Positions 1-49,810 of a stretch of 64,000 nt of DNA are shown here, one piece after another. This DNA comes from Acidimicrobiia bacterium (GTDB taxonomy: Bacteria; Actinomycetota; Acidimicrobiia; IMCC26256; JAENVU01). A model generated the notes under the pieces. That model was not told the DNA's origin and did no database searches. It saw only the letters and a list, made by a program, of their open reading frames with translations. The DNA is taken from the NCBI GenBank assembly GCA_031430375.1, contig JANPBJ010000149.1:16776-80775 (forward strand). The letters run 5' to 3'. The translations under genes and the position numbers were made by a program. How positions within the stretch are numbered: the stretch's first letter is position 1; the number at the start of each line of letters is the position of its first letter.

Positions 1-2496
<2,496 letters not shown>

Positions 2497-2500
<4 letters not shown>

Positions 2501-13225: not shown

Positions 13226-13468
13226 GGCGGGGCAGCCTACAGAGCCAATCCCCGGAATCGTTCGGTCGGGGCGGTCGCCTCCGACGCGGCAATCACGGGC
13301 CCCAACTCGGCGGCGATCTGGCGGACCTACGCCAGGTACTTGGCGTTGATCCCCGTCTTCACCTCGAAGGGTTGTGTGGATTTTGTTGTCGGGATGTCGT
13401 GCAAACCTGACACGGGCGTCATACGATGCGCGAGCGGCGCCGGGGGGCCCGCACCAGGGGGTCGAAGC

Positions 13469-15064: not shown

Positions 15065-15095
15065 GTCTCGGTCTAGGTCGAGGAGCGCAGGAACA

Positions 15096-16043
15096 GTGGG
15101 GGCCTATGTAGCGCGCAGGCTCGGCGCTCTGGTCCCGCTGCTCGTCATCATCTCGTTCATTGTCTTCTCGCTCTCGCAACTGTTGCCCGGAGATCCGGCG
15201 ATCGTGCTCGCCGGTGGACAGAAGGCCACCCCGGAGGGCATCGCGCGCGCCCGCGAGAAGCTGCACCTGGACGAATCGTTCGTCGAGCAATACATCATCT
15301 GGCTCGGCGACACCGCGCAGGGTGATCTCGGTGAATCGTTCTTCGACCACCGTACCGTGGCGGAGTCCATCTCGAGTCGGTTTCCGGTCACGCTGTCCCT
15401 TGCGCTCGGTGCCTTGTTCTTGACGGTCCTCATCGGGGTTCCGCTCGGCATCCTGGCCGCGGTACGCCAAGGCGGCATCGTCGACCGACTCATCACCATG
15501 GTGTCGAGTGTCGCGCTCGCGATGCCGGACTTCTGGTTGGGAATGATCCTGATCTCGCTGTTTGCCGTGACCTTCCGGGTGCTGCCGTCGGGCGGCTATG
15601 AGGGACTGTTGAGCTCTCCAGCCGGGTGGGCCACCCACCTCTACCTGCCCTGGATCGCGATGGGTATCCCCGGCGGAGCGGGCCTGGCTCGCCAGGTCCG
15701 GGGCGCGATGATCGACGCGTTGGAACAGGACTACATCCGCACGGCCGAGTCCAAGGGGTTGCGACGGCGGGTGGTGGTGTTCAAGCACGCATTGAAGAAC
15801 GCGTCCCTCGCGCCGGTGACGGTTCTAGGTATCGGCTTTGCCTACATGCTCGGCGGCTCCGTGATCATCGAACGCATTTTCACGTTGCCCGGCATGGGCC
15901 AGTACTTCTTCATCGCGCTGTTCAAGAAGGACCTCCCCGTGATCCAAGGGGTCGTCCTCCTCAGCGCGTTGATCTTCGTCGTCCTCAATCTCGTCGTGGA
16001 TGTCCTGTACGCCTACCTCAACCCGAAGGTCAGGTTGGGATGA
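15096..16043 (+). CDS. ABC transporter permease (DppB/OppB-like)
   Basis: 315 aa, multi-TM, with the EAA-type loop YIRTAESKGLRRRVVVFKHALKNA. Confidence 0.9.
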   Translation: MGAYVARRLGALVPLLVIISFIVFSLSQLLPGDPAIVLAGGQKATPEGIARAREKLHLDESFVEQYIIWLGDTAQGDLGESFFDHRTVAESISSRFPVTLSLALGALFLTVLIGVPLGILAAVRQGGIVDRLITMVSSVALAMPDFWLGMILISLFAVTFRVLPSGGYEGLLSSPAGWATHLYLPWIAMGIPGGAGLARQVRGAMIDALEQDYIRTAESKGLRRRVVVFKHALKNASLAPVTVLGIGFAYMLGGSVIIERIFTLPGMGQYFFIALFKKDLPVIQGVVLLSALIFVVLNLVVDVLYAYLNPKVRLG

Positions 16044-16933
16044 CGGACGCAGCGCTGGAGCCCGACAAGCAGCTGGATGCGACCGGGCCCTCCCCGTGGG
16101 GCCGTGTCCTACGGCGCTTCGTGCGGAGCGGTCCGGCGATGACCGGGCTCGTGATCGTGGTGCTGCTGGTCTTGACGGCCCTGTTCGCGTCCGTGCTGGC
16201 GCCTTACGGTCAGGGCCCGGACTTCGAACCCGATCTCGGTCCAACGGCCAAGCATTGGCTCGGGACGAACAGCATCGGCCGGGACCTGCTGACGCGGCTG
16301 ATCTATGGCGCCCAGTCGTCGATGTTCGTCGCGTTCTTGGTCGTCACGATCGCAACGTCGATCGCGCTGGTGCTCGGATTGGTATCCGGCTATTTCGGCG
16401 GCTGGGTCGGCGCGGTCATTGACCGGTGTATGGACGCGCTGTTCACCTTCCCGCCGTTAACCCTCGCCCTGGCGATCGCCGCGCTGCTCGGCCCGAGCCT
16501 CACCAACGCGTCGCTTGCGATCGCGGTGGTCTTCGTCCCGGGGCTGATGCGGGTCATTCGTTCTCAAGTCCTGGCGGTTCGGGAGGAGTCGTTCATCGAG
16601 GCGGCTCGTTCGGTGGGGGCCAAGGATGCTCGGATGCTGCGCAAGCATGTACTGCCGAATGTGGTCTCTCCTGTGATCGTGCAGGCCGCGCTGGCCTTCG
16701 GGTACGCCATCAGCGCCGAGGCCGGCCTCTCGTTTCTCGGTTTGGGCGTGACCCAACCGACATCGAGCTGGGGCGTGATGTTGGCAGAGGCCTACGCCAA
16801 GATCCTCGAGTCCCAGTGGCTCCTGGTGCCTCCGGCGTTCGCGATTCTGTTGGCGATCCTCGCGTTCAACCTGGTGGGCGACGGCCTCCGCGACGCCCTC
16901 GGCCGTGAAGCCATCGCCGTGGAAGGACCGTGA
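16040..16933 (+). CDS. ABC transporter permease (DppC/OppC-like)
   Basis: 3' part of track ORF 15626..16933. ATG 16040 overlaps the upstream stop (ATGA). Sequence: MTDAALEPDKQLD...FIEAARSVGAKDARMLRKHVLPN. Confidence 0.9.
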   Translation: MTDAALEPDKQLDATGPSPWGRVLRRFVRSGPAMTGLVIVVLLVLTALFASVLAPYGQGPDFEPDLGPTAKHWLGTNSIGRDLLTRLIYGAQSSMFVAFLVVTIATSIALVLGLVSGYFGGWVGAVIDRCMDALFTFPPLTLALAIAALLGPSLTNASLAIAVVFVPGLMRVIRSQVLAVREESFIEAARSVGAKDARMLRKHVLPNVVSPVIVQAALAFGYAISAEAGLSFLGLGVTQPTSSWGVMLAEAYAKILESQWLLVPPAFAILLAILAFNLVGDGLRDALGREAIAVEGP

Positions 16934-19050
16934 CCGTGAGCGCGAGCGAGGTGCCGCTGCTAGAGGTCGTGGATCTCACAGTTGAGTTCGGTACCTCGGC
17001 TGGCACGGTGCGTGTCGTCGATGGTGTGAGCTTCGCGGTCAATCGCGGTCAGACCCTCGGTCTCGTCGGTGAGAGTGGTTGCGGGAAGAGCGTCTCCTCC
17101 CTCGCAGTCATGGGACTGATCCCGCGGCGGAACGCTCGCGTCCGTGCAACTACGCTCCGGTTAGGCGACCATGACCTCCGGACCATCGGCCACGCAGAGC
17201 TCCGCGCACTACGGGGTCCCGAGATGGCAATGATTTTCCAGGAACCGATGACGAGCCTGAACCCGGCGTTCACCGTCGGCAATCAGATCGCCGAGACGGT
17301 ACGCGCCCACCAGCGCGTCGGACGTTCGGCCGCCAATGCCAAGGCCGTGGAGATGCTCGACCGCGTAGGGATTCCCGATCCACACCGGCGGGTCAAGGAC
17401 TATCCGCACGCGTTCTCGGGAGGGATGCGGCAGCGGGCAATGATCGCGATGGCGCTGGCCAACGATCCGAAGTTGCTGATCGCGGATGAACCCACCACTG
17501 CGCTCGACGTCACGATCCAGGCTCAGATCCTCGAGCTGCTCCGGACCCTGCAACACGAGACCGGCATGGCGATCGTCTTCGTGACTCACGATCTCGGCGT
17601 GGTCGCCGACATCTGTGACCGGGTGGTGGTGATGTACGCGGGCCAGGTGGTGGAGGAGTCACCGCTCGACCCGCTGTACGCGTCACCCCGGCATCCGTAC
17701 TCCGCTGGGCTCCTGGCGTCGATGCCCCAAACCGCCTTGCCCGGCCAGCCGCTCACCGTCATTCGCGGTCAGGTCCCGAGCCCGCAGGATTGGCCCCATG
17801 GATGCCGGTTCGCCGAGCGTTGCGACCATTCCGAGCCTCGTTGTGTGGAGGATCCGGTGGCATGGACCGCAATGGCCGACGCCGGAGTCCGTTGCGCGCG
17901 CGCGGAGTCCATCACACTCGTTGGCACGGCCGAGCTCGGCGGATCGCGAACGAATTCGGCGCGTGGAGATTCGGCTCGGGGGGATTCGGCCGGTGTGGAT
18001 CCGGCTCGTGCGCCCGCGGATGCACTGGTCTCGGTCGTCGGTCTCGCCAAGGCGTTTCCGGTGCGCAGCGCGTTGTTGCGACGTCAGCTCGGCCTTGTGC
18101 GTGCCGTCGACGGTGTGGACTTCGAGATCGCCGCCGGGGAGACGCTGGGATTGGTCGGCGAGTCGGGGTCGGGCAAGTCCACGGTGGCGCGGCTCGTGTT
18201 GCGGTTGATCGAGCCGAGTGCAGGAAGGGTCTTGGTGGCCGGACTGGATGTCACGGCGCTCGCAAAGGGGCCCTTACGTAACGCACGCGGCGAGATGCAG
18301 ATGGTGTTTCAAGACCCCTACTCGTCACTCGATCCGCGCCAGACCATCGCCGAGGCGATCGGGGAGCCGATCGAAGTTCACCGCGGTGTGAAGGGCCGCG
18401 TGCGTGACCAACGCGTCACCGAGTTGCTTGCGCACGTGGGAATCGGCGCCGACGCCCTCCGCCGGTATGCGTACGAGTTCTCGGGCGGGCAACGTCAGCG
18501 CATCGCGATCGCTCGCGCGCTCGCCCTGGACCCGAAGCTCGTGGTGCTGGACGAACCGGTCTCATCCCTCGATGTGTCGACCCAATCGCAGGTGATCAAC
18601 CTACTCATCGATCTTCAGGATCGGCTCGGTCTCACGTATCTGTTCATCGCGCACGATCTTTCGGTCGTCCGCCATATCTCGGATCGCATCGCGGTGATGT
18701 ACCTCGGCCGTATCGTCGAGCAGGGACCGGCGGAAGAGGTCTATACCCGCCCGCGCCACCCCTACACCGAGGCGTTGCTCTCCGCGATTCCGCTTCCGGA
18801 TCCCCACTATCAACGCAACCGGCCGCGTATTGTTCTGCACGGCGATGTGCCCAGTCCGCTTGCGCCACCTTCCGGCTGCCGGTTCCGAACTCGGTGCCAG
18901 TACGCGATGGACGTGTGTGCGCACGAAGATCCCCCGGCGTTCAGTGCGCCGGGAGGAACCACGGTGGCGTGCCACTTGCACACCACCGGTCCCCAACTCG
19001 CAGGCGAACCCGTCACCGGGCTGGCCGTCGGGACAGGGACGCCACGGTGA
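16930..19050 (+). CDS. fused double ABC ATPase (DppD-DppF fusion)
   Basis: 706 aa with a GTGA overlap. Two Walker A motifs ([16 protein letters not shown]), two signature motifs ([16 protein letters not shown]) and two oligopeptide C-terminal domains ([16 protein letters not shown]). Confidence 0.9.
17953..18012 (+). repeat. degenerate 15-bp in-frame tandem repeat (4 units) in the inter-ATPase linker
   Basis: Units aattcggcgcgtgga / gattcggctcggggg / gattcggccggtgtg / gatccggctcgtgcg, encoding [20 protein letters not shown]. Confidence 0.7.
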
Positions 19051-19656: not shown

Positions 19657-20634
19657 TCAGCCCGCAGCGCGCCGCACGGCATCCATCAGCCGCGCGACCT
19701 CCCGACCGTCGGCGAAGCTCGGCGTCTCGGCGCCAATCTCTCCCGAGCGGACCGCATCTCGCACGACCAGAGCCCACGCGGTCATCGCCACGAGATGCGG
19801 ATCGCGATTCCCCGAGTGGGGGCTGCTCCACTCGTCGCGCGAACCATCCCCGCATCGCATGACCACACTGCGATCCGCAACGATCTCCGCCACCGCGTGT
19901 GAGCCGGAGAGGAGGACGCGGGGTGCGACGGACGCGGCCGCCGCAAACGTGGAGTCGATCGCGACCGTTGCACCCGCATTCGTGACCAACCCGGCTCGAA
20001 ACGTGTCGTCCGCATCGCAGGGTCGGGGCTGCCCGCCAGCATCGGTACGTACAGGGATCTGAGTCTGAAGCTCGGCCCGGGTGACCACAAGATCCCCGAT
20101 CCACCAACGCAGCGTGTCGAGCGCATGGGAACCCCACGCGCCCAGCCAGCCTCCACCCGCGGCCCGTTCGAACAACCAACCCGCGGGTCGCAACGGCACC
20201 CGAGACCAGCTGCTGAAGTGGCTCCACGCGACGTGCTCGATGTCTCCGATCGTTCCCGCGCGAAGGAGTTCCCGAACGTGGACGCGCGCCGGTTCGTGAC
20301 GAAACTCGAAGTTCAACAGCGCGACCAGGCCCGTTGATTCGGCTGCGGCCACCATCCGTTCGGCGTCACCGAGGTTGCAACCAAAGGGTTTGTCGCACAG
20401 GACCGCATGCCGACCCGCCAGCGCGAGCTCCACGTGCTCCGCGTGCAGGAACGGCGGCGAATGCACCGACACGAGGTCGAGGTCCGGTCGTCGGCACAGC
20501 GCAGCCACCGCACTGGCATCGCGCGCTGAGACCACTTCCACCACGTCGCATCCGTCGGCGGCCGAGAACACCGGCGCGACCACCCGCGCGCCGAAGCCGG
20601 TGCCAATCACGCCAATGCGCAGCGCGGCACTCAT
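19657..20634 (-). CDS. Gfo/Idh/MocA family oxidoreductase
   Basis: 325 aa with the N-terminal Rossmann motif LRIGVIGTGFGARV and CDKPF. Confidence 0.8.
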   Translation of the reverse strand: MSAALRIGVIGTGFGARVVAPVFSAADGCDVVEVVSARDASAVAALCRRPDLDLVSVHSPPFLHAEHVELALAGRHAVLCDKPFGCNLGDAERMVAAAESTGLVALLNFEFRHEPARVHVRELLRAGTIGDIEHVAWSHFSSWSRVPLRPAGWLFERAAGGGWLGAWGSHALDTLRWWIGDLVVTRAELQTQIPVRTDAGGQPRPCDADDTFRAGLVTNAGATVAIDSTFAAAASVAPRVLLSGSHAVAEIVADRSVVMRCGDGSRDEWSSPHSGNRDPHLVAMTAWALVVRDAVRSGEIGAETPSFADGREVARLMDAVRRAAG

Positions 20635-20683
20635 TCGGCGAAGGTGGCCGACGGATCGGGGATGTTCGACGGCACCGGTGCGT

Positions 20684-21430
20684 TCACATCCGAGATGATC
20701 GCAGACCGGCGGCCGAGGCGGGTTCCAGGAATATGTGTGCGTGCGGCGTTCGCTGCATGATGGACGCCGGGCAGGCGGTGGTCATCGGACCTTCCAACGC
20801 GGCCGCGACCGGAACCGACTTTCGCGCGTCGGGGGCGATGACCATCACCGATCGGGCCCGGAGCAATGCGGGAATCGTGACCGTGATCGCCCGCGGCGGA
20901 ACCTGCGCCACCGTCGGGAAGTGGCCCTCGCCCACTTGTTGATTGCGGCACGCAAGATCCAGGTCGACGATCTTCACATCGAGCGGATCGGCAAAATCCG
21001 CGACGGGTGGATCGTTGAACGCGAGATGTCCATTCTCGCCGATGCCCATCACACAGAGATCCAAAGGGTTGTCGTGGAGCAGCCCCGCGTACCGAACGCA
21101 CTCGGTCTCCGTGGGCGCGAGACCGTCGATGAGATGAAAGGCCCGCGGCGACACGCGGCCCACAATCCGGTCGCGCATGTATCGAGCGAAGCTCGCCGGG
21201 TGATCGGCGCCGATCCCGACGTATTCGTCCATGTGGAATCCGATGACTCGGTCCCACTCGACTCGGCTCGACCCCACGAGCACATCGAGGAACGCCAACT
21301 GCGAGTTCCCCGATGCGAACATCACGTGCGCAACACCGCGTGCGCTCACCGCCGCCGCGATCGCTTCCACCGCGAACACCGCCGCGGCCCGTGCGAGCGC
21401 GTTCGGATCGGCCAGAACGTGGACGTTCAC
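20684..21430 (-). CDS. glucosamine-6-phosphate deaminase / 6-phosphogluconolactonase family protein (NagB-like)
   Basis: Track ORF 20684..21475. The family-consistent start is GTG 21430 (VNVHVLADPNALARAAA). Motifs FASGNSQL, GFHMDEY, MGIGENGHLAFNDP. Confidence 0.75.
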   Translation of the reverse strand: MNVHVLADPNALARAAAVFAVEAIAAAVSARGVAHVMFASGNSQLAFLDVLVGSSRVEWDRVIGFHMDEYVGIGADHPASFARYMRDRIVGRVSPRAFHLIDGLAPTETECVRYAGLLHDNPLDLCVMGIGENGHLAFNDPPVADFADPLDVKIVDLDLACRNQQVGEGHFPTVAQVPPRAITVTIPALLRARSVMVIAPDARKSVPVAAALEGPMTTACPASIMQRTPHAHIFLEPASAAGLRSSRM

Positions 21431-21437
21431 GGTTTCG

Positions 21438-22811
21438 TCACGCGAATTGCGGGAGCCACTCGGCGGTGGCGCCAAGCAGCTCGTCGGTCATGCGCTCCAA
21501 GGCCTCGAAGGCGATACGGCCCGCCAACGGGTCGGCGTGCATCGCAGCCAGGACCACGTCTCGATCCCCGGTGACGCCTGCCTCCACGGTGAGCTCCTGG
21601 GCGACCGAGACCCGGCGGAGCTGTTCGGCCAGCACCGTCGGCGCAATCGCTCGATCGCGCCCGCGCATGCCAGCACCGTCGACGGTGCAGATGCTCTCGA
21701 CCACAACGGCGTCGGGGAGGTCGGGGCATTGACCGGCGTTCGGCAGGTTGAGCGGGAGGTCCCGACGGTGACCGGTGATCAGCGAATCGATCGCGGCGGC
21801 CACCAGCTCGCCCGATGGCACCCGCGAGACCTCGGGGGTTGCGAACATCGCGTCGAGATCCGTGGCGTGCCCAACTTCAGACCGTTCGCGATCCTCGATC
21901 GTGGTGAGACGCACTCCCCACCGTTCACCCCACCCGGATTCGGCGGTGAGGAACCCGGGGAAGAACTCGGCGAGGTGACGGTCGCCCGCACCCGGGAGCG
22001 CTCCGAACCGTCGGAACAGATCGAACTTCAGGCGATTCGCGGCGATCAGATCGCCCTTGGTCCAGTGCTCACCCGGGGTCGGCTTTGCGAGGCCCAAACC
22101 TTCGGGAAGGTCCATCGCCAGCCGTTCGTCGGCGCGCCCGGGATCATCGAGGAGCTCGGCAAGGAGCTCGAAACCGTCGCGTCCTCCCACGGTGGCGCGC
22201 GTGACGATGGGAAAGTGATTGACGCCCGTGATCTCGAGATCAATGGATCGAAAGTCCACCTCGAGGAGGAGTGACAGGAGGAACTGCAACACCGTCACCT
22301 CGTGGCACAGGCCGACCGTGCGAATCGACGACTCACGCGTGACCGCGCGACAGATCGTGGTCATCGGATTCGTGATGTTGAGCATCCACGCGTCGGGACA
22401 CAGCTCCTCCATGTCCGCTGCGATACCGAGAAAGATCGGGATGTTGCGCAGCGCGCGCGTGATCCCTCCCGGACCGACCGAATCGCCGACGCTCTGCTCG
22501 ATCCCGAAACCGCGCGGGATTTCCAAGTCGTGACGCATGCTCGCGAACCCGCCGGTGGAAATGGTGACGACCACGTAGTCCGCACCGCCGAGCGCGTCAC
22601 GTTGATCGGTACTCGTGCGCACCGACAACGGGATGGACCGCCGCGCGGCCACGTGTTCCACCCACTCCGCCATCCGCGGCAACGGCGCCGGGTTGATATC
22701 GACGAGCACGATCTCGGCCCCAACCAGCGAGGGCGTGTTCGCGACGTCCACCACGAGATTGGGCACCCACTGGTAGCTCCCGCCGCCGATGACCACAATC
22801 CGCGGGCTCAC
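21438..22811 (-). CDS. glycoside hydrolase family 4 (NAD/Mn-dependent glycosidase)
   Basis: Track ORF 21438..22931. The family-typical N-terminus VSPRIVVIGGGSYQW starts at GTG 22811 with GAGG upstream (ATG 22853 is an alternative). Motifs NITNPMT and GLCHEV. Confidence 0.8.
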   Translation of the reverse strand: MSPRIVVIGGGSYQWVPNLVVDVANTPSLVGAEIVLVDINPAPLPRMAEWVEHVAARRSIPLSVRTSTDQRDALGGADYVVVTISTGGFASMRHDLEIPRGFGIEQSVGDSVGPGGITRALRNIPIFLGIAADMEELCPDAWMLNITNPMTTICRAVTRESSIRTVGLCHEVTVLQFLLSLLLEVDFRSIDLEITGVNHFPIVTRATVGGRDGFELLAELLDDPGRADERLAMDLPEGLGLAKPTPGEHWTKGDLIAANRLKFDLFRRFGALPGAGDRHLAEFFPGFLTAESGWGERWGVRLTTIEDRERSEVGHATDLDAMFATPEVSRVPSGELVAAAIDSLITGHRRDLPLNLPNAGQCPDLPDAVVVESICTVDGAGMRGRDRAIAPTVLAEQLRRVSVAQELTVEAGVTGDRDVVLAAMHADPLAGRIAFEALERMTDELLGATAEWLPQFA

Positions 22812-22851
22812 GTCAGCCTCGCTCTTGGCCCTGCCGGCCGGGCCGCTCCGC
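22812..22851 (-). repeat. leader/intercistronic element copy Z (short form), directly 5' of the GH4 start
   Basis: Sense strand reads GCGGAGCGGCCCGGCCGGCAGGGCCAAGAGCGAGGCTGAC then GTG. It shares the GCGGAGCGG box and the GGCCCGGCC...CAGGGCCAAGAG core with copies X and Y. Confidence 0.65.
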
Positions 22852-22878
22852 ATTCGGCGTGGCGTTGCCGCTGGACAC

Positions 22879-23331
22879 TCAGGATCCTTGCGATCCAGGG
22901 TCGAGGAGGGACTGCAAACCACCGTGCACATGACGAAGGTAGGCCGGACTCTCCCACGCCGCGGGGAAATGACCCAAGGCGGTTGTCAACACCCGGCCGG
23001 ATCCTTCGGAGAAACTCCAGGCGACGGGATATCCATAGGCGGGCGGTCGGGCGCCCTCCGCCGTCAGATCCAACTGTTCGACTGGGACCCGCACCAGGAT
23101 GTGCGCATCCGGTCGAAGGTCCCGAAATTGATACACCTCGTCGTGCCAACGCCACCGCGACCCGAGATGCGCCGTCGCCGGATGGCTCGCATCCACCACT
23201 TCGAGATCCACGGTCTGCGTCCAGGGATGCCCGTCGAAACGCGCGCCGACGATACGGCCGAGTCCTCCCAGCCGTGGCACGCATCGGCCGCCGCGTGGAT
23301 CGCGACGGCTTGTCGCGCGGGTGACCGCCAC
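22879..23331 (-). pseudogene. ThuA-domain protein, 5'-truncated fragment
   Basis: The 150-aa ORF carries only the C-terminal ~130 aa of a ThuA-like fold (FDGHPW...HPATAHL...DEVYQF...GRVLTTALGH...YLRHVHGGLQ). The N-terminal ~80-90 aa of the family are missing. The first ~20 codons of the ORF run into repeat copy B. Confidence 0.5.
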
Positions 23332-28299: not shown

Positions 28300-30237
28300 T
28301 TGACACCCGCGGATCCAACCGAGAGCATGCGGAGCATGACGCATCCCCTGGCCATGCTCACTGGTGACGAGATCTCACACGCCAGTCGGATAGTGCGCGA
28401 GTCTCCGCAGTGGACCGAGGGTGCGACGTTCGTCCATGTGATCCTCGACGAGCCCCACAAGGATGAGACCGCGCGCGGCACGGCCGGAGAGCCTGTCGAT
28501 CGCCGGGTCCAAGTCCAGTTGGTGACGGGTCCCGAGATCGACGTCACCGAAATCGTCGTCTCGCTGACGAGCAACACGGTGCTGCGCTGGGACGTCGTCC
28601 CGGGCATGCGGCCTACGTTGCTGTTCGGCGAGGCAGCCCACGCCATCTTCACTACCAAGGAGCATCCCGACTACATCGCCGCGCTGGCTCGCCGCGGTAT
28701 CACCGACATCGACAACGTGCAGATCGACCCCTGGCCGGCGGGCGCGTTCGGTTACGAAGCCGAGCGGGGTCGCCGGATCGCTCGGTGCATCTCATTTCTC
28801 CGCACCGACCCGCAGGACAATGGCTACGCGCGACCCATCGAGGGTCTCATCGTGCACTTCGATCTCGGCCGCAAAGAAGTCATCGAAGTCATCGATCACG
28901 GGATCGTCACGCTGCCCACCGAACATGGGCGCTACTTCGCCGCCGACTCCGAACCGCTGCGCACCGACCTCAAACCCATCGAGATCACGCAACCCGAAGG
29001 CCCCAGCTTCACCGTCGACGGCAACTTCGTGCAGTGGCAAAAGTGGTCGGTCCGGCTCACGTTCGACCCCTACGAGGGGCTCGTGCTCCATCAAGTGTCG
29101 TACAACGACGCGGGACGCGAACGGTCGATCTTGCACCGGGCGTCGATCACCGAAATGGTGGTGCCGTACGGGGATCCCGCCGAGACCCAAGGCTTCAAGA
29201 ACGCCTTCGACGTGGGCGAGTGGGGTCTCGGCCGGATGACCCAGTCGCTCACGCTCGGGTGTGATTGCCTCGGCGAGATTCATTACTTCGACGTGGCCCT
29301 TACGCGAGAAGACGGCGAGCCGTACACGATCAAGAACGCGATCTGCATGCACGAGGAGGACTACGGAATCCTCTGGAAGCACGTCGACCTGTTCGGTGGC
29401 ACGAGCGAAGTGCGCCGCAGCCGCCGGCTCGTGGTGAGTTTCATCTCCACCGTCGGCAACTACGAGTACGGCTTCTTCTGGTACTTCTACATGGACGGCA
29501 ATATTCAGCTCGAGGTGAAGCTCACCGGCATCGTCTCGCCGATGGCCATCGAACCGGGGACCACTCCCGAGTATGCGAACGTCGTTGCCCCGGGCGTGGC
29601 GGCACCGAATCACCAGCACATGTTCAGCGCACGTCTCGACTTCGACGTCGACGGCACCACCAACGAGGTCTACGAGGTCGAGGCCGAGCGCGTGGCCACC
29701 GGGCCCGAGAACCCGTGGGGCAATGCGTTCCGCGCGCGGTCGACGCGCCTCGACTCGGAACTGGTGGCGCAGCGCGACACAAACTCAGCCACCTCGCGCT
29801 CGTGGCGCATCGTGAACCCGGACGCACACAACGGACTCGGGCAACCGACGGCCTACAAGCTCATCCCGACGATGAGCACGCCCACGCTCCTCGCGCAACC
29901 GGACTCCAGCGTCGGCCAACGCGCGGGATTCGCCCAGCACAACATCTGGGTGACGCCGTACGCGCCGGACGAGCGCCGCGCCGCGGGCAACTATCCGAAC
30001 CAGCACGACGGCGGCGACGGCCTCCCCCACTGGACCGCGGCTGATCGGTCACTCGTCGATACCGATGTGGTGGTCTGGTACTCCTTCGGCATCACGCACT
30101 TCGTGCGTCCCGAAGACTGGCCGGTCATGCCGGTGGAGTACACCGGGTTCCTGCTCACACCGTTCGGCTTCTTCGACCGCAACCCCGCGCTCGACGTGCC
30201 GCCGTCCGACGGCGGCCACTGCCACTCGAACGAATAG
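28300..30237 (+). CDS. copper-containing primary amine oxidase (TPQ cofactor)
   Basis: 645 aa, collinear with Arthrobacter globiformis amine oxidase as I recall it. TPQ consensus TVGNYEYGFFWYFY. Cu-ligand regions HQHMFSARLD and WYSFGITHFVRPEDWPVMP. The start is ambiguous: TTG 28300, ATG 28327 or ATG 28336. Confidence 0.9.
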   Translation: MTPADPTESMRSMTHPLAMLTGDEISHASRIVRESPQWTEGATFVHVILDEPHKDETARGTAGEPVDRRVQVQLVTGPEIDVTEIVVSLTSNTVLRWDVVPGMRPTLLFGEAAHAIFTTKEHPDYIAALARRGITDIDNVQIDPWPAGAFGYEAERGRRIARCISFLRTDPQDNGYARPIEGLIVHFDLGRKEVIEVIDHGIVTLPTEHGRYFAADSEPLRTDLKPIEITQPEGPSFTVDGNFVQWQKWSVRLTFDPYEGLVLHQVSYNDAGRERSILHRASITEMVVPYGDPAETQGFKNAFDVGEWGLGRMTQSLTLGCDCLGEIHYFDVALTREDGEPYTIKNAICMHEEDYGILWKHVDLFGGTSEVRRSRRLVVSFISTVGNYEYGFFWYFYMDGNIQLEVKLTGIVSPMAIEPGTTPEYANVVAPGVAAPNHQHMFSARLDFDVDGTTNEVYEVEAERVATGPENPWGNAFRARSTRLDSELVAQRDTNSATSRSWRIVNPDAHNGLGQPTAYKLIPTMSTPTLLAQPDSSVGQRAGFAQHNIWVTPYAPDERRAAGNYPNQHDGGDGLPHWTAADRSLVDTDVVVWYSFGITHFVRPEDWPVMPVEYTGFLLTPFGFFDRNPALDVPPSDGGHCHSNE

Positions 30238-30345: not shown

Positions 30346-31119
30346 CTACGGGTGCTGGCTACTCACGCTGACGACTTCGCCCGTCATGTAGCTCGAATAG
30401 TCCGAGGCGAGGAAGACGATCACGTTGGCGATCTCCCACGGTGCTGCGGCGCGGCCGAACGCTTCACGTGCAGTCAACTCCTCCAGCACTTCGTCGCTCG
30501 TTACCTTGGAGAGGAACGGATGCATCGCGAGCGACGGCGCCACGGCGTTCACGCGCACGCCGTACAACGCGGCTTCCACCGCGGCACAACGCGTCAAGGC
30601 CATCACCCCGGCCTTCGCGGCTGCGTAATGCGCCTGGCCGCGTTGCGCGCGCCATCCGAGCACCGACGCATTGTTGACCACCACACCAGCGTGCCGCGGC
30701 TGCATGTGGCGCAGGGCGGCGCGCACGCACCGGAAGGTTCCATTGAGCGTGACGTCGAGCACCTTCATCCACTGCTCGTCGGTCATGTCCACGAGGTCGG
30801 CCGTACCACCGAGCCCGGCGTTATTCACAACAATGTCGACTTCACCGACCGCCGCGACCGCGCCCGCGAACATCGCCTGCACCTGCTCCTCGACGGTCAC
30901 GTCGCACGGCAACGCCGCGGCCACGCCGTCGCCGAGCTGCTCGGCCGACTCGGCCAGGCGCCGCTCGTGCGCGTCGCTGATCACGACCGTCGCACCTTCG
31001 GCAATACAACGCTCGGCGGTCGCGAACCCGATGCCGGTTCCGGCGGCTGCCGTGACCAGCACCCGCTTGCCGGTCAGGAGCCCATGCGCGGGAGGAATCG
31101 TCGGATCTTGTTCGTTCAC
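30346..31119 (-). CDS. SDR family oxidoreductase (IpdF-like by synteny with the upstream ACAD)
   Basis: 257 aa. Motifs VTAAAGTGIGFATA, NNAG, YAAAKAG. Confidence 0.8.
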   Translation of the reverse strand: MNEQDPTIPPAHGLLTGKRVLVTAAAGTGIGFATAERCIAEGATVVISDAHERRLAESAEQLGDGVAAALPCDVTVEEQVQAMFAGAVAAVGEVDIVVNNAGLGGTADLVDMTDEQWMKVLDVTLNGTFRCVRAALRHMQPRHAGVVVNNASVLGWRAQRGQAHYAAAKAGVMALTRCAAVEAALYGVRVNAVAPSLAMHPFLSKVTSDEVLEELTAREAFGRAAAPWEIANVIVFLASDYSSYMTGEVVSVSSQHP

Positions 31120-31173: not shown

Positions 31174-32361
31174 TCACGCGGTCACCTTGGGTTCGGGCGG
31201 CAGGCCGAGGACCCGCTCGCCGATGATGTTGCGTTGAATCTGATTTGAGCCGCCGTAGATCGTGTCGGCGCGGGTGTAGAGGAACATTCGCTGCGCGAGC
31301 GTCAGGTCGTACGGCAAGGCCTCGCCCACCTGTGACCACGGCCCGCGAATGTCCATCGCCAGCTCGCCCATCCGTCGGTGCAATCCGGCCCAGAAGAGTT
31401 TGCCGATCGATGTCTCGCGCGTCACGTCGCCTCGCGCCATCGCGGTGAGCCCGCGCATCGCGGTATACCGCATGATCTCGAGTTCGATCCACGTCTGCGC
31501 CAGGCGTTGGCGGATCACGGGGTCCTCCGCGATCTCGCGCTCACGCGCCACGGCCACCATCTCGTGCCACTCGTTGACGAAGTTGAGCTGCTGGCCGAGC
31601 GTGAGCGCGCCCCGTTCGAACGCGAGGGTGCCCATCGCGACCTTCCACCCACCGTTCACCTCGCCGATCACGTTCTCGGCGGGGGTGCGCGCGCCGTCGA
31701 AGAAGACCTCGTTGAACTCTGACGTACCAGTGATCTGCTCGATCGGCCGCGTCTCGATCCCCGTCTGCGCCATGGGAACGAGGAGATACGAAATGCCCCG
31801 GTGACGCGGCGCGTCACGGTCGGTACGAGCGAGGACGAAACACCACTGTGCCCAGTGCGCGAGTGACGTCCAGACCTTCTGACCGTCGATCACCCACTCA
31901 TCGCCATCGAGGACCGCTCGGGTTGAGAGGTTTGCGAGGTCGGAGCCCGCGTTCGGTTCGGAGTAGCCCTGACACCAGAGCTCTTCGCCACTCGCGATGG
32001 GCGGGAGAAACCGAGCGCGTTGGGCGTCGGTGCCGTAGTGCAGGATCGTTGGCCCAATGAGTCCTTCGCCCACGAGTCCCACGCGCCCGGGTCCCCCGGC
32101 ACGCGCGTACTCCTCGTAGAAAATTACCTGTTCGAGCAGCGTTGCGTCGCGCCCTCCGTACTCACGCGGCCAAGACAGGCAGGTCCAGCCCGCCGCCCCG
32201 AGCGCACGCTCCCACGCGTGACGTTCCCCGAAGAGGGCGTGCTCGTCACCGGGTCCACCTCGTCCCCGAACCATGCGGAACTCACCCTCGAGGTGCGACA
32301 CCAGCCAGTCGCGCGCTTGCCCGCGAAACGCGTCGTGCTCGGCCGAGAAGTGCAGGTCCAC
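31174..32361 (-). CDS. acyl-CoA dehydrogenase (FadE30-like by synteny)
   Basis: 395 aa with a GTG start. Motifs WCQGYSEPNAGSDLANL, DGQKVWTS, YGGSNQIQRNIIGERVLGLP. Confidence 0.85.
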   Translation of the reverse strand: MDLHFSAEHDAFRGQARDWLVSHLEGEFRMVRGRGGPGDEHALFGERHAWERALGAAGWTCLSWPREYGGRDATLLEQVIFYEEYARAGGPGRVGLVGEGLIGPTILHYGTDAQRARFLPPIASGEELWCQGYSEPNAGSDLANLSTRAVLDGDEWVIDGQKVWTSLAHWAQWCFVLARTDRDAPRHRGISYLLVPMAQTGIETRPIEQITGTSEFNEVFFDGARTPAENVIGEVNGGWKVAMGTLAFERGALTLGQQLNFVNEWHEMVAVAREREIAEDPVIRQRLAQTWIELEIMRYTAMRGLTAMARGDVTRETSIGKLFWAGLHRRMGELAMDIRGPWSQVGEALPYDLTLAQRMFLYTRADTIYGGSNQIQRNIIGERVLGLPPEPKVTA

Positions 32362-32367
32362 GGTGGG

Positions 32368-32862
32368 TCAGCGCGGCCGATAGAACGGGTTCCACGGGTC
32401 CGTTCGCGCGTTGAGAACTTCCTCCACCGGCGGGTCACCCCGAACGCCGGCCAGCAGGGCCAACCGAACCGACCGACGGTTGTTCTCGAAGACAAGTTTG
32501 GCATCCGCGGCGTTGGGATTGACCCAGACCGCGGCGATCAACAGCAGCTTGCCCACCCGATCCGTCGGAATGATGTCATCCGCGAGCGCGTCGGCCACCC
32601 CGGCGGCGACCCCCGCTTGTGCTGCACCCCAGGTCATCTCAGCGTGGCGTTCGCCCGTGATGCCCGCCTTGTTGACGAAGAGCGTGGGCGGCTGGACCAG
32701 CAGCCCCGGCTGGATCACCGCCACAAACGGCGCGTGGCCGCGCGATGGTGACGCGAGCGCGGAAGCCCACGCGGTCCCCACCGGGCCGGAGCGTTCGCCC
32801 AGCACCGTGTTGACGTGAGCGGCCTCATTGCCGTCACCGATGAAGCTCTCCCCGATCTGCAC
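32368..32862 (-). CDS. formaldehyde-activating enzyme (Fae)-like protein
   Basis: 164 aa with a GTG start. IGESFIGDGNEAAHVNTVLGERSGPVG...FVAVIQPGLLVQPPTLFVNKAGI...GAAQAGVAAGVADALADDIIP...AVWVNPNAADAKLVFENNRRSVRLAL is collinear with Methylorubrum Fae ([25 protein letters not shown]...[23 protein letters not shown]...) as I recall it. Confidence 0.7.
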   Translation of the reverse strand: MQIGESFIGDGNEAAHVNTVLGERSGPVGTAWASALASPSRGHAPFVAVIQPGLLVQPPTLFVNKAGITGERHAEMTWGAAQAGVAAGVADALADDIIPTDRVGKLLLIAAVWVNPNAADAKLVFENNRRSVRLALLAGVRGDPPVEEVLNARTDPWNPFYRPR

Positions 32863-33322
32863 CGCCGCATGCTGCCAGACGGCGACGCGCCCGGGCGAGT
32901 AGCGCGGTCACCGTGGCCGCCAGCGCCACCCCCGCCGCGAGTTCGGTCCGGAGCCCCTCTGGCGATTCCCGTTGGATCTGCTTGTGCAGTTGGTCCACCC
33001 ACCCCGGCAACGGATTCACGCCGAAGAAGAACTCCCCGGGCTTGTCGGAATCCAAGATGGCGGCGCCGGCGATGCCCGCGAGGAGAGCCCGCCGGGGTGG
33101 GACCCCGGCGACCGTGACCAACGCGACGGTGGCCAGCCCGAGCCATCCGTCTCGTTTCGCAACCTCATAGAAGCCGTCCTTGTCCAGCTGTGGGTTTCCC
33201 CAGTGTGGGGTTAAATCCATGACGACGTGCGTCGCAAACCCCACGCCGAACGCGGCTACCGGCCGCCGCCGACACAGGCTGCCCGCGATTGTGCCGGCAA
33301 GGACGTGGTTGGTGATGAACAT
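32834..33322 (-). CDS. membrane-bound metal-dependent hydrolase-like protein (YdjM/DUF457-like)
   Basis: Track ORF 32834..33424. The likely start is ATG 33322 (MFITNHVLAGTIAGSL). It has the His-rich pattern THVVMDLTPHW and several hydrophobic segments. Its 3' end overlaps the Fae-like start by 29 nt. Confidence 0.5.
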   Translation of the reverse strand: MFITNHVLAGTIAGSLCRRRPVAAFGVGFATHVVMDLTPHWGNPQLDKDGFYEVAKRDGWLGLATVALVTVAGVPPRRALLAGIAGAAILDSDKPGEFFFGVNPLPGWVDQLHKQIQRESPEGLRTELAAGVALAATVTALLARARRRLAACGGADRGELHR

Positions 33323-33417
33323 CGCTTCGGTAGTGTGCCGCGCCGGTCCACCGACGCGGACCATGCTCGCCGCGTCAACGGATTCGGGTCTATGGATTTG
33401 AGTCAACGGAGGAACGA

Positions 33418-34173
33418 ATGGCATTCAAAGTCGGAGTACAGCTTCACCCCCAGGTCGGAACCGTCGACGAACTCCGCGCGGCATGGAAGGCCGCAGATGC
33501 GTTGGGCGCCGACAGCATCTGGATTTGGGACCACTTCTTCCCGCTCTACGGCGACCCGGATGCGAACCACTACGAGGCGTACACCTTGCTCGCGGCGATG
33601 GCCGTCGACACCCAACATGCGCACATCGGCGCGCTCGTCACCTGCAACTCATACCGCAACCCGCAACTGCTCGCCGACATGTCGCGCACGATTGATCTCC
33701 TGAGCCACGGCCGCTTCGTGCTCGGTATCGGGTCAGGCTGGTTCGAGCGGGACTACACCGAATACGGCTACGACTTCGGAACCGCAGGAGAGCGGCTCGC
33801 GCAGCTCGGCACCGCGCTGCCAGTCATTGCCGACCGGCTCGGCGCGCTCGTGCCACCACCCGACGGCGACGTACCAATTCTCATCGGTGGCTCCGGTGAG
33901 AAGGTCACGCTCAGACTCGTAGCGGAGCACGCCGATGCGTGGAACACCTTCGGCCCGCCCGACAACTTCGCGAAGAAGAACGCGATACTCAACACCTGGT
34001 GCGAGAAGTTGGGACGCGCCCCGCGTGAGATTGAACGGACCGTCGCGATTCAACCCCAAGAGGTGGGCGACATCGACGCGTACGTCGCGGCGGGCGTCGA
34101 GCACTTCATCGTGATGGTGGGAGCGCCGTACGACCTCGCGCCGCTCGAGACCCTCATCACCGAGCGGGGTTGA
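33418..34173 (+). CDS. LLM-class F420-dependent oxidoreductase (Mer/luciferase superfamily)
   Basis: 251 aa with GGAGG before the ATG. Sequence MAFKVGVQLHPQ...SIWIWDHFFPL...LGIGSGWFERDYTEYGY. Confidence 0.8.
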   Translation: MAFKVGVQLHPQVGTVDELRAAWKAADALGADSIWIWDHFFPLYGDPDANHYEAYTLLAAMAVDTQHAHIGALVTCNSYRNPQLLADMSRTIDLLSHGRFVLGIGSGWFERDYTEYGYDFGTAGERLAQLGTALPVIADRLGALVPPPDGDVPILIGGSGEKVTLRLVAEHADAWNTFGPPDNFAKKNAILNTWCEKLGRAPREIERTVAIQPQEVGDIDAYVAAGVEHFIVMVGAPYDLAPLETLITERG

Positions 34174-48700: not shown

Positions 48701-49810
48701 ATGACGGACCTGCCCGGGCTCGACCGCGCGACCACGCTGCCCGCCTCGGCGTATCGCGACGACGATTGGTATGAGCAGGAACGCCGCGCGATCTTCGCCA
48801 CCACCTGGCAACTCGCCGGATTCCGAGCCCAGCTGACCGAACCGGGCGACTACGTCACCCATGAGATCGCGGGATGGCAGATCGTCGTGCTGCTCGATGA
48901 CGACGGCTCACTCCGCTCGTTCCACAACGTATGCCGCCACCGCGCCGGACCACTGGTGACCGACGATGGCGGACACTGCGCGGCCATCGTCTGTGGATAC
49001 CACGGCTGGCGTTACGCACTCGACGGCAGCCTGGCGAATGCCCGCGACTTTGGAGCAGCGGCGGACTTCGACCCCAACGACTTTGGTCTGCTCCCACTCG
49101 ACGTCGACGAATGGCGCGGCCTCATCTTTGTTCGCATCACTCGCGGTGGGCCCACCCTCGTGGAGTCGCTCGGTGGACTCGTCGGTCGCAGCACCGACCA
49201 ACCAATCGAATCGTTGACCTACAGCCATCGCGTGACGCACATCGTCGACGCCAACTGGAAGACGTACACCGACAACTACGGTGAGGGGTACCACGTTCCC
49301 TTCGTACACGCGGAGCTCAACCTCCAGATCGATGCTCGCGCATACCAGGTAGCAGTTCATGACCGCTGGGTCGAGCACACCGCGCCAACCCGCGACGGGG
49401 CGGTCACGGCCGGGGCGTGGCTTTGGCGGTATCCGAACTTGGGCCTCAACCTCTACCCCGAGGGGATGAACGTGGAGCGCTGGTTGCCCGACGGCCCACG
49501 CCGAACGCGCGTGATCTACGACTTCTTCTTCACCGACACCTCACCCGTTGCCGCCACGACGAACGCGGAGATCGAACGGCTCGGCATTGAGGTGCTCCAA
49601 GAAGACCGCCGTATCTGCGAACGGGTCCAACGGAATCTCGAATCGGGCATCTACGGATTCGGTCGGCTCAGCCCGCGTCACGAGAACGGTGTCCACGCTT
49701 TCCAAACCTGGGTCCGAGACGACCTCGCCCGCTACGAATCAGCCCGCGACGAATCAGCCCGCGACGAATCCGCGGGATCAAGGTCGAGTGCGAGGGAGTT
49801 CACGCAGTAG
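48701..49810 (+). CDS. Rieske [2Fe-2S] aromatic-ring-hydroxylating oxygenase alpha subunit-like
   Basis: 369 aa. Rieske motif CRHRAGPL...CGYHGW and mononuclear iron region [12 protein letters not shown]. The C-terminal tail [14 protein letters not shown] is encoded by a tandem repeat. Confidence 0.85.

Follow-up and report, generated by a model that had tools for sequence, protein, structure and literature searches.

An orphan Fae-family gene of an Acidimicrobiia lineage represents a deep and uncharacterised branch of the formaldehyde-activating enzyme family

The formaldehyde-activating enzyme (Fae) serves as a marker of tetrahydromethanopterin (H4MPT)-linked formaldehyde oxidation in the annotation of genomes and metagenomes. 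A gene of this family lies in the 64-kb stretch of Acidimicrobiia DNA analysed here (hereafter the window), in the vicinity of a copper amine oxidase, an F420-dependent oxidoreductase and steroid-type catabolic genes (Table 1). The locus raises the question of whether the gene product is a Fae in the enzymatic sense, and whether it works together with the genes that surround it.

Table 1. Coordinates of the Fae-family gene and its neighbours in the window.
Feature	Coordinates	Strand	Remarks
Copper (TPQ) primary-amine oxidase	28300..30237	+	Pfam 539 bits; NF008559 920 bits; NYEY TPQ-type motif
SDR (IpdF-like, PRK07831)	30346..31119	-	Last of the same-strand run; NF005880 435.6 bits
Acyl-CoA dehydrogenase (ACAD; FadE30-like)	31174..32361	-	Three ACAD Pfam domains; start 6 nt past the Fae stop
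Fae-family gene, clade B	32368..32862	-	164 aa, GTG start; assigned by profile search, tree and predicted fold
Small membrane ORF	32834..33322	-	About 162 aa from Met35 of the longest ORF (to 33424); 29-nt overlap of its stop with the start of Fae
F420-dependent LLM oxidoreductase (TIGR03856 / MSMEG_2906 family)	33418..34173	+	Divergent from the membrane-ORF/Fae operon

The preliminary description of this DNA had read the product as collinear with Fae and proposed a profile search as a check, and both the reading and the check held up. The protein, whose N-terminus is MQIGESFIGDGNEAAHVN, matched the Pfam family PF08714 (Fae) with 171.1 bits against a cutoff of 27 (E = 2.4e-50, profile positions 1–156 of 159), with the key His and Gln present, and its residues 1–160 are collinear with the Fae of Methylorubrum extorquens AM1 (EC 4.2.1.147; PDB 1Y5Y, E = 2e-29), a small alpha/beta protein that forms a homopentamer. 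An AlphaFold model (pLDDT 91) superposed on 1Y60/1Y5Y with TM scores of 0.88–0.91 and an rmsd of 1.3–1.7 Å, and Foldseek returned no other significant match to this model in the PDB. Homologues starting with MQIGES or VQIGES agree with the GTG start, and an exact-sequence lookup of the protein gave no match. The ORF is real, belongs to the Fae family and is kept by purifying selection, as evidenced by dN/dS values of 0.07–0.23 against orthologues at a dS of about 1 and by a 164-codon frame that is intact in 17 MAGs. A decaying relic that has no current function in the lineage might be suspected from the faster evolution of Fae relative to its neighbours (72–82% versus 83–98% identity, with a dN/dS about 1.5–2 times that of the ACAD) and from its loss in at least two sublineages; however, the intact frame, the low dN/dS and the invariance of the catalytic residues described below make this extremely improbable.

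Family membership alone does not settle the function. The protein also passed the NCBIfam model TIGR03126, with 149.1 bits against a cutoff of 118, while the Fae proteins encoded in H4MPT islands scored 255–261 and M. extorquens Fae scored 261. A Fae2-type protein without the catalytic His reached 141.6 bits, which is above the cutoff; the TIGR03126 cutoff is therefore not discriminating for function. In a neighbor-joining tree, the family split into one group, termed clade B here, and the rest with bootstrap values of 100/100, and the window Fae fell inside clade B and hence failed to group with the characterised Fae. Averaged over clade B its identity was 0.51, as against 0.34 for the island clade, and it shares 37% identity with M. 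extorquens Fae; the latter showed an identity of 0.32 to clade B and of 0.44–0.69 to all other groups, the proteins of Fae-fusion length included. Members of clade B that are 48–66% identical to the window Fae occur on the megaplasmids of Streptomyces clavuligerus, in Kibdelosporangium persicum and Planosporangium thailandense, and in Burkholderia, Caballeronia and Hydrogenophaga. All these copies are pipeline-annotated as "formaldehyde-activating enzyme" and are uncharacterised. Literature searches on Fae in Acidimicrobiia, Streptomyces or Actinobacteria and on PF08714/TIGR03126 turned up no study that characterises clade B. Judged from the alignments and the tree, clade B is a deep, uncharacterised branch of the Fae family.

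The phylogenetic comparison that the preliminary description had called for was run against Fae and Fae2, and Fae3 was compared by its description only. Fae2 of Methylobacterium aquaticum 22A (Maq22A_1p31155) belongs to the same Pfam family and is a paralogue of unknown biochemical role, but it is only 26% identical to the window Fae, has a Met at the His22 position where the window Fae keeps the His, groups with another type (L038) in the other superclade, and is found in methylotrophs with a full H4MPT pathway. Fae3 (Methyloversatilis universalis, Methylophilaceae) is, by description, a distant paralogue of Fae with no assigned function, induced by methylamine, and all descriptions of it come from methylotrophs that have the H4MPT pathway. 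Its induction recalls the genes for methylamine and betaine that lie near some of the clade-B fae genes.

The likeness of the window protein to M. extorquens Fae comprises the Pfam family, the length, the fold, His22 and Gln88, and a C-terminal "(H/N)PF" arm. In the alignment, its His16 and Gln82 correspond to His22 and Gln88, the residues reported as catalytic in the abstract of the Fae structure paper, His22 being the proposed acid catalyst; both are invariant across 32 relatives. Other positions have been exchanged throughout clade B, namely (in M. extorquens numbering) F38W, N59G, Q79H, F84W, F119W, H121N/D, Y135R and H164N. Phe38, Asn59, Phe84, Phe119, His121 and Tyr135 are conserved throughout the Fae/Fae-fusion superclade, whereas the window Fae carries Trp32, Gly53, Trp78, Trp113, Asn115 and Arg129 at these positions, respectively, and in addition an Asn for Asp24. 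The carriers named above share this signature, i.e., the His, the Gln, the three Trp residues and Asn158. The exchanged residues presumably have a role in H4MPT binding in the pocket of Fae. We infer that the pocket-lining residues of clade B have been systematically rebuilt relative to Fae.

An ordinary Fae (EC 4.2.1.147), acting with H4MPT or a close analogue while the rest of the formaldehyde-oxidation pathway is encoded elsewhere in the genome, would agree with the Pfam and TIGR03126 scores, the retention of His22 and Gln88 and a fold identical to that of Fae. We turned to the genomic association of the gene with H4MPT functions. The preliminary description had stated that no mtd, mch or fhc gene is present in the window; a tblastn search with 20 island proteins and Pfam searches of about 50 window ORFs bear this out. 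The same 20 proteins, taken from an Azospirillum island (L039), detected no H4MPT or methanofuran (MF) homologue in approximately 540 kb of actinobacterial flanks of related loci, so that the search covered window and flanks (about 600 kb); likewise, the precomputed neighbourhoods held no H4MPT/MF Pfam family. The island-type fae of Azospirillum is linked to mch, mtdB, fhc and mptG, unlike the window fae. At the level of replicons, mch was present on those of Azospirillum, Paraburkholderia, Rhizobium and Phyllobacterium that carry island-type fae, and was found neither on any of the 17 Streptomyces plasmids nor on the Burkholderia replicons with clade-B fae; a comparison based on mptG gave the same ten leading genera. 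Overall, the window, the flanks and the Streptomyces plasmids yielded no association of this type of Fae with mch, mtd, fhcABCD or mptG.

Linkage is an imperfect guide, since a bona fide fae is sometimes unlinked to the island: an H4MPT island was found in the Azospirillum context (H40) and not in the plasmid contexts of Methylocystis (H32) and Burkholderia RPE67 (H57), and the Methylocystis plasmid provides a precedent for unlinking. Moreover, Actinomycetes are among the phyla with some H4MPT/MF genes (Chistoserdova, 2016), and "fae" is already a RefSeq annotation for Streptomyces plasmids and for Kibdelosporangium, which indicates that the earlier view of Fae as unusual in actinobacteria was overstated. 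A clade-B Fae was also located on a contig labelled Rhodoluna (L024). Rhodoluna genomes are very small, about 1.4 Mb. When this small-genome occurrence is considered together with a separate clade at 100/100 whose distance from M. extorquens Fae exceeds that of the fusion-length groups, a TIGR03126 score below that of island Fae under a cutoff that a protein lacking the catalytic His also passes, the H4MPT-free window, flanks and plasmids, and the deletion of the gene in sister genomes, an ordinary Fae appears unlikely.

The immediate neighbours were then considered as potential partners. The membrane gene upstream of Fae overlaps it as had been described, but its "hydrolase-like" label could not be upheld, as the only Pfam match at E <= 10 was YdjM with E = 0.64. 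This ORF belongs to a family that is restricted to this Acidimicrobiia group (286 clusters, all labelled "hypothetical") and shows a dN/dS of 0.06–0.17. The fadE30- and ipdF-like genes follow Fae in the order previously reported, and the SDR is conserved at 90–98% across L001–L017. No terminator-like site was found in the gap between Fae and the ACAD; a promoter scan returned 0 promoters, and the terminator-like sites lay inside coding sequence. Fae and the ACAD are probably co-transcribed, which does not imply a functional link.

Such a link would exist if Fae worked with the fadE30/ipdF-like genes in the catabolism of steroid rings C/D (HIP) or of related CoA thioesters. The short gap without a terminator, the Fae-ACAD-SDR adjacency wherever Fae is present in the lineage, L033 included, and the HIP-type cluster that fills the left half of the window (an ipdAB-like CoA-transferase, an echA20-like ECH, NMO, thiolases and FadD) are consistent with this role. 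Nevertheless, we consider it improbable, as the ACAD-SDR pair stays intact, next to the membrane ORF, where Fae has been deleted, and the clade-B Fae of all other lineages lack such neighbours. Scanning for a KstR2-type operator (CAAGNNCTTG) gave 0 matches, a weak negative given that the motif is that of mycobacteria, and no step in the catabolism of HIP is known to require carbinolamine chemistry.

The preliminary description had further suggested an aldehyde-scavenging module, in which the copper amine oxidase would set free formaldehyde, or some other aldehyde, from methylamine or a primary amine, Fae would bind it to a pterin or thiol acceptor, and the LLM protein would serve as a Mer-like reductase. 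The TPQ oxidase itself was confirmed by both profiles and by its motif (Table 1), the three genes are within 6 kb of one another, an arrangement seen again in many MAGs of Acidimicrobiia; the methylamine induction of M. universalis Fae3 also indicates that a response to amines is possible among Fae paralogues. The identification of an F420-type LLM oxidoreductase stood as well, with 332.8 bits to TIGR03856 (cutoff 243.7). Its reading as Mer was rejected: TIGR03856 is the best match, and the Mer models NF002619 (59.9 bits, cutoff 276) and TIGR03555 (45.6 bits, cutoff 348.7) scored far below their cutoffs. LLM genes are common in the window, which contains three in 64 kb. The oxidase gene lies on the other strand and converges on the Fae operon, and is therefore not co-transcribed with Fae; its distance from Fae varies from 3.2 to 6.7 kb, L033 lacks it, and in L006 there is none within 8 kb of Fae.

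The recurring arrangement reflects collinearity of the whole block, in which a sortase, TPK and a thiamine-type ABC transporter are included. The LLM, membrane ORF, ACAD, SDR and amine-oxidase block also occurs in L041, L042 and L043, which lack Fae, and the oxidase is retained in L041 and L043. In L043 a scar of the Fae deletion is preserved and the ACAD adjoins the membrane ORF; conversely, L033 has Fae without the membrane ORF. Since the block persists without Fae and the scar is still visible, a module of amine oxidase, Fae and LLM is not supported. Clade-B Fae in other lineages share no neighbours with the window block, neither an amine oxidase nor an LLM gene. The module is thus very improbable and largely refuted by presence/absence. 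The link of Fae to the amine oxidase and the F420 oxidoreductase is inherited gene order and not a functional module, and Fae is accessory and dispensable in this lineage, having been deleted in sister genomes.

Outside the window's lineage, clade-B Fae has partners of its own. In other actinomycetes and in Burkholderiales, the gene heads a cassette that includes an ABC transporter, an enolase-superfamily enzyme, aldehyde dehydrogenases, a beta-hydroxyacid dehydrogenase (beta-HAD) or aldo/keto reductase (AKR), and an Fe-ADH. The constant partners are the beta-HAD/AKR and an SSADH-type aldehyde dehydrogenase, whereas the enolase-superfamily enzyme often accompanies them, as do the Fe-ADH and an ABC transporter of betaine or peptide type. 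Among 13 clade-B loci outside the lineage with enough flank to be counted, 12 encode the beta-HAD or AKR on the strand of Fae and no farther than 3.4 kb from it, and 10 loci have an MR_MLE enzyme at +0.6 to +0.8 kb. The constant partners are predicted to act on semialdehydes. No cassette partner matched an NCBIfam equivalog above its cutoff, and therefore no substrate is assigned to the cassette; choline/betaine, gamma-butyrobetaine, acid-sugar and ergothioneine routes were considered and none is favoured over another. In contrast to the S. clavuligerus type, which heads the dehydrogenase cassette, the window fae is placed between the membrane ORF and the ACAD, and none of the cassette partners was found within 8 kb of Fae in the window, in L001–L017 or in L033. 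The Fae of this lineage is an orphan copy detached from the cassette, and a sequence identity of 62–66% is the sole basis for transferring a function to it.

With slightly better than even confidence, we propose that the window gene encodes a functional clade-B protein with the Fae fold, Fae-type chemistry and a non-H4MPT acceptor or substrate, which persists in the lineage as an orphan copy. With family, fold, clade, residue pattern, selection, synteny and presence/absence as the direct basis, we infer the chemistry, the acceptor and the co-transcription. Fae-type chemistry appears most likely because the counterparts of His22 and Gln88, His16 and Gln82, have been retained. H4MPT is probably not the acceptor or substrate, since the pocket residues are rebuilt and the gene was not found with H4MPT/methanofuran genes in any of the loci searched. 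The enzyme would catalyse the acid-catalysed dehydration or hydration of a carbinolamine, as in Fae, whereby an aldehyde (formaldehyde or another short aldehyde) would be condensed with a nitrogen nucleophile, or released. In the window's lineage, the membrane ORF, Fae and the fadE30/ipdF-like genes would probably form a single transcript. A functional analogy is offered by the glutathione-dependent Gfa of Paracoccus denitrificans, which speeds a reaction in which formaldehyde condenses spontaneously with a non-pterin carrier; having an unrelated fold and family and no sequence similarity, Gfa is a precedent for carrier diversity and not a relative.

For the clade as a whole, we consider it possible, at a level just short of even, that the clade-B "Fae" constitutes a distinct enzyme family that combines the Fae fold and a His acid catalyst with a substrate or acceptor other than H4MPT. 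Its role may be the making or breaking of an aldehyde-amine adduct (carbinolamine or aminal) within a catabolic pathway, as yet undescribed, that degrades betaine-type or other nitrogenous compounds, and a semialdehyde product would then pass to the conserved beta-hydroxyacid/AKR and SSADH-type partners. The earlier suggestion of a Fae paralogue with a new function is thereby supported, by the clade of its own at 100/100, the distinct partners and the consistent lack of linkage to H4MPT genes, though it is unproven.

For the window itself, these results describe an accessory, dispensable and orphan copy of Fae, and the story of an amine oxidase and an F420 enzyme around it is unsupported. In wider terms, clade B is a large, well-separated branch that occurs commonly in Actinomycetota and also in Burkholderiales, and that passes the marker thresholds yet is never found with H4MPT genes. 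PGAP names its members "formaldehyde-activating enzyme", and one MAG study lists TIGR03126 in its table of markers. If the substrate of clade B differs from that of Fae, the "formaldehyde oxidation" calls for Actinomycetota that numerous MAG studies base on TIGR03126- or K10713-type markers would be wrong, the C1 inferences for many actinobacterial MAGs would need correction, and a new catabolic cassette would be open to study in tractable hosts such as Streptomyces clavuligerus and Burkholderia.

The Fae-like open reading frame of 164 codons put forward in the preliminary description is present on the reverse strand (see table), and its product matched the PF08714 (Fae) profile from end to end with 171 bits against a cutoff of 27. 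It also scored 149 bits on NCBIfam TIGR03126 (cutoff 118) and could be aligned with the solved Fae of M. extorquens over residues 1–160 (E = 2e-29). An AlphaFold model based on 32 relatives (pLDDT 91) superposed on the Fae structures 1Y60/1Y5Y with TM scores of 0.88–0.91 and an rmsd of 1.3–1.7 Å, and a PDB search with this model returned no significant match besides these entries. The window has a G+C content of 66%; the MAG closest to it belongs to the Acidimicrobiia and shares 96% identity in Fae and 82–97% in the neighbors. The gene is under purifying selection (dN/dS 0.07–0.23 at dS ~1), and it is very improbable that it represents a decaying relic.

When 1.84 billion cluster representatives were searched, 986 matched at E <= 1e-3, and full-length representatives were kept from these. 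A neighbor-joining (NJ) tree was built from 75 sequences chosen among the matches most similar to the window protein, with the Fae from the H4MPT/methylofuran island of Azospirillum brasilense, Methylocystis Fae, M. extorquens Fae and Fae2 of M. aquaticum 22A as references, the last being the sole Fae-family match on the plasmid named in the Fae2 paper. Two superclades were observed. The first holds M. extorquens Fae, island-type Fae, the Fae2 type and fusion proteins of 377–428 aa that are probably Fae-Hps. The second, clade B, unites the window protein with all actinobacterial sequences and a Burkholderia/Caballeronia/Hydrogenophaga group, and was split from the first in 100 of 100 NJ bootstraps. 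M. extorquens Fae has a mean identity of 32% to clade B versus 44–69% to every other group. For the window protein, the values are 37% to M. extorquens Fae and, on average, 51% to clade B. Scores on TIGR03126 were 255–261 bits for island Fae, 138–165 for clade B and 115–142 for Fae2-types. This "equivalog" model is over-inclusive: since a Fae2-type protein with Met replacing the catalytic His (locus L038) reached 141.6 bits, above the 118-bit cutoff, passing the cutoff is no evidence of Fae activity. Clade B is not Fae2, because the latter has Met at position 22 (M. extorquens numbering) and 26% identity to the window protein; the literature knows Fae2 and Fae3 only from methylotrophs with a complete H4MPT pathway, as paralogues to which no role has been assigned.

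His22 and Gln88, which we take to be the two residues named in the abstract of the Fae structure paper, are kept on both sides of the superclade split, and 32 close relatives show no variation at either. Clade B departs systematically from the other superclade at positions where conservation in the latter is 84% or higher. These include three aromatic switches to Trp (Phe38, Phe84 and Phe119), together with His121 to Asn/Asp, Tyr135 to Arg, Asn59 to Gly, Gln79 to His, His164 to Asn, Pro86 to Ala and Ala94 to Gly. Compared with M. extorquens Fae, clade B retains His22 and Gln88 and carries a rebuilt set of aromatic and polar residues that are conserved elsewhere.

The statement in the preliminary description that the window lacks mtd, mch and fhc was borne out. 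Using 20 Azospirillum island proteins as tblastn queries, among them FhcA-D, MptG, MtdB, Mch, MfnB-like and ATP-grasp/RimK proteins, no homologue besides Fae was detected in the window and all actinobacterial loci (607 kb), and Pfam assigned none of ~50 window ORFs to C1, H4MPT or folate C1 metabolism. In the plasmid collection, mch is present on replicons of Azospirillum, Paraburkholderia, Rhizobium and Phyllobacterium that carry island-type fae, and mptG has the same leading genera; mch was found on none of 17 Streptomyces plasmids with clade-B fae and on none of the Burkholderia replicons with clade-B fae. Absence of H4MPT genes at the genome level is suggested by these replicon- and flank-level data and is, to our knowledge, the general picture for Streptomyces and Rhodoluna. 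The window Fae could instead be an ordinary H4MPT-dependent enzyme with its pathway encoded elsewhere in the genome; part or all of the H4MPT gene set is carried by some Actinomycetes (Chistoserdova, 2016), and we regard this explanation as unlikely, though the most serious of the rivals.

The preliminary description had also suggested that Fae could form a module with a copper amine oxidase and a luciferase-like F420-type oxidoreductase (LLM). The neighbors are as it described, except that the amine oxidase is convergent and not co-oriented. The region is collinear in 17 Acidimicrobiia loci, and since the block takes in unrelated housekeeping genes, it reflects inherited gene order and is no evidence of a module. 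Within the block, Fae is the least conserved gene (72–82% identity versus 83–98% for its neighbors). The amine oxidase lies 3.2–6.7 kb from Fae across relatives; in L006 it was not found within 8 kb of Fae, and L033 lacks it. The latter is a locus of the same lineage whose Fae is 62–63% identical to that of the window and whose layout is LLM / Fae-ACAD-SDR (ACAD and SDR being the FadE30-like and IpdF-like genes of the window), without the small membrane ORF found upstream of Fae. Because the SDR genes flanking the oxidase directly adjoin in L033 and its distance from the operon varies, the data suggest a lineage-specific insertion into a steroid-type cluster. Three LLM genes occur in the 64 kb, so it means little in this genome if one of them adjoins a particular gene.

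The membrane ORF family is restricted to this Acidimicrobiia group, always lies divergent from the LLM of the TIGR03856 family and evolves under purifying selection. Its longest ORF (196 aa) probably reaches beyond the true start; homologues begin near Met35. The membrane ORF overlaps Fae by 29 nt and 6 nt separate Fae from ACAD; in the window's lineage, the membrane ORF, Fae, ACAD and SDR probably share one transcript. A role for Fae together with these fadE30/ipdF-like genes seems improbable to us. Among divergent members of the membrane ORF family, a YkuD gene occupies the place of Fae in L041 and L042, and L043 has the order LLM / membrane ORF-ACAD-SDR ... amine oxidase with Fae absent. 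The spacer in L043 is a Fae deletion scar: ~400 nt of Fae are missing, and ACAD starts ~60 nt past the remnant of the gene. The Fae-less loci and this scar indicate that Fae was ancestral at the site and repeatedly lost, with every proposed partner kept. In view of the whole-block collinearity, the variable or absent amine oxidase and the retention of LLM and amine oxidase in Fae-less L043, the module was not sustained and is, in our judgment, quite improbable.

Coordinates of features in the window and in related loci
Feature	Location	Strand	Description
Fae-family ORF	window 32368..32862	-	164 codons, GTG start, N-terminus MQIGESFIGDGNEAAHVN
Membrane ORF family	window 32834-33424	-	286 clusters, ~150 aa, no Pfam domain, "hypothetical protein"
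Cu amine oxidase	window 28300-30237	+	between two SDR genes
LLM genes	window 1187-2500, 33418-34173, 58421-59314
Collinear block, side 1			TPK, sortase, PTP, LLM (17 Acidimicrobiia loci)
Collinear block, side 2			membrane ORF, Fae, ACAD, SDR, Cu amine oxidase, SDR, ECH, CoA-transferase A/B
HIP/steroid-ring-type cluster	window 4183-27343		thiolases, FadE-type ACADs, FadD-like ligase, ChsH2-OB/Ltp-type pair, NMO (IpdC-like), IpdAB-like CoA-transferase, EchA20-like ECH
Peptide ABC transporter	window 13340-19050		interrupts HIP-type cluster
GH4, glucosamine-6-P isomerase, GFO genes	window 19657-22931		interrupt HIP-type cluster
Rieske ring-hydroxylating oxygenase alpha subunit	window 48701-49810	+	possibly KshA-like or demethylase; adjoins Glu/Leu/Phe/Val dehydrogenase and class-III aminotransferase
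Spacer, membrane ORF to ACAD	L043:6457-6565		110 nt; Fae upstream sequence and first 14 nt GTGCAGATCGGGGA kept, identical to window
Fae2-type gene	L038:11923-12456
Clade-B Fae cassette	L028:6675-16543, L018:41-8062, L022:6553-15210, L025:2339-10474, L034:6502-13778; L036:14983-19457
MtbB-like ORF pair	L031:18786-20504, L032:18858-20504		PF09505 (dimethylamine methyltransferase), in-frame TAG between (gggttgTAGgtgggt)
Fae cassette with lyase genes	L030:1496-18215		aromatic amino-acid lyase, urocanase homologue, amidohydrolase, M20 peptidase, rhodanese; Opp-type transporter

According to the Pfam annotation of the ~50 ORFs, the left part of the window is a HIP/steroid-type beta-oxidation cluster and the right part consists of housekeeping genes.

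None of the window's neighbors recurs at clade-B loci outside its lineage, where Fae heads a different, conserved catabolic cassette. Its hosts are Streptosporangiaceae, Kribbellaceae, Planosporangium, Kibdelosporangium, Streptomyces and MAGs of 50–57% G+C (one labelled Rhodoluna). There, an ABC transporter of betaine type (OsmF-like) or Opp type is followed in order by Fae, an enolase-superfamily enzyme, a PuuC/BADH-like aldehyde dehydrogenase, a beta-hydroxyacid dehydrogenase (beta-HAD), an Fe-ADH and an SSADH-like aldehyde dehydrogenase, and an IclR regulator is often present; the order in Burkholderia and Hydrogenophaga is Fae, aldo/keto reductase (AKR), SSADH, MFS. A same-strand beta-HAD or AKR gene lies within 3.4 kb of Fae in 12 of the 13 loci with enough flank, the exception (L026) being a truncated Fae match, and the enolase-superfamily gene is found at +0.6 to +0.8 kb in 10 loci. 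No partner reached an NCBIfam equivalog cutoff, so the pathway counts as undescribed. Methylamine or quaternary-amine genes lie near Fae in some of these contexts; examples are genes for an FMO-like flavoprotein, for an MtbB-like methyltransferase accompanied by a corrinoid protein, and for an aromatic lyase/urocanase.

In L031 and L032, the adjacent MtbB-like ORFs are followed by a gene for a B12-binding corrinoid protein, the layout of a pyrrolysine-type methyltransferase, and a clade-B Fae of actinobacterial type is encoded on the L031 contig as well. The L030 neighborhood resembles histidine- or ergothioneine-type catabolism.

On balance, we lean toward the view that the window Fae performs Fae-type carbinolamine chemistry with a non-H4MPT acceptor or substrate and persists here as a cassette-detached, dispensable copy. 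The enzyme would condense or release an aldehyde at a nitrogen nucleophile; clade-B members in general may likewise work on something other than H4MPT as acceptor or substrate, and in the cassette lineages dehydrogenases or reductases of semialdehyde type may take over the aldehyde. In the window's own lineage, Fae stands apart from the cassette and is dispensable.

The Fae family is known, standard pipelines would name the window protein "formaldehyde-activating enzyme", and RefSeq already applies this name to clade-B relatives. We found no description in the literature of the actinobacterial and Burkholderiales Fae as a separate deep clade, of its residue signature or its own conserved gene partners, or of its missing H4MPT linkage. 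Within clade B, the copy in the window is an orphan and not remarkable in itself; the interest lies in clade B itself and in the risk that clade-B fae is miscounted as a C1 marker.
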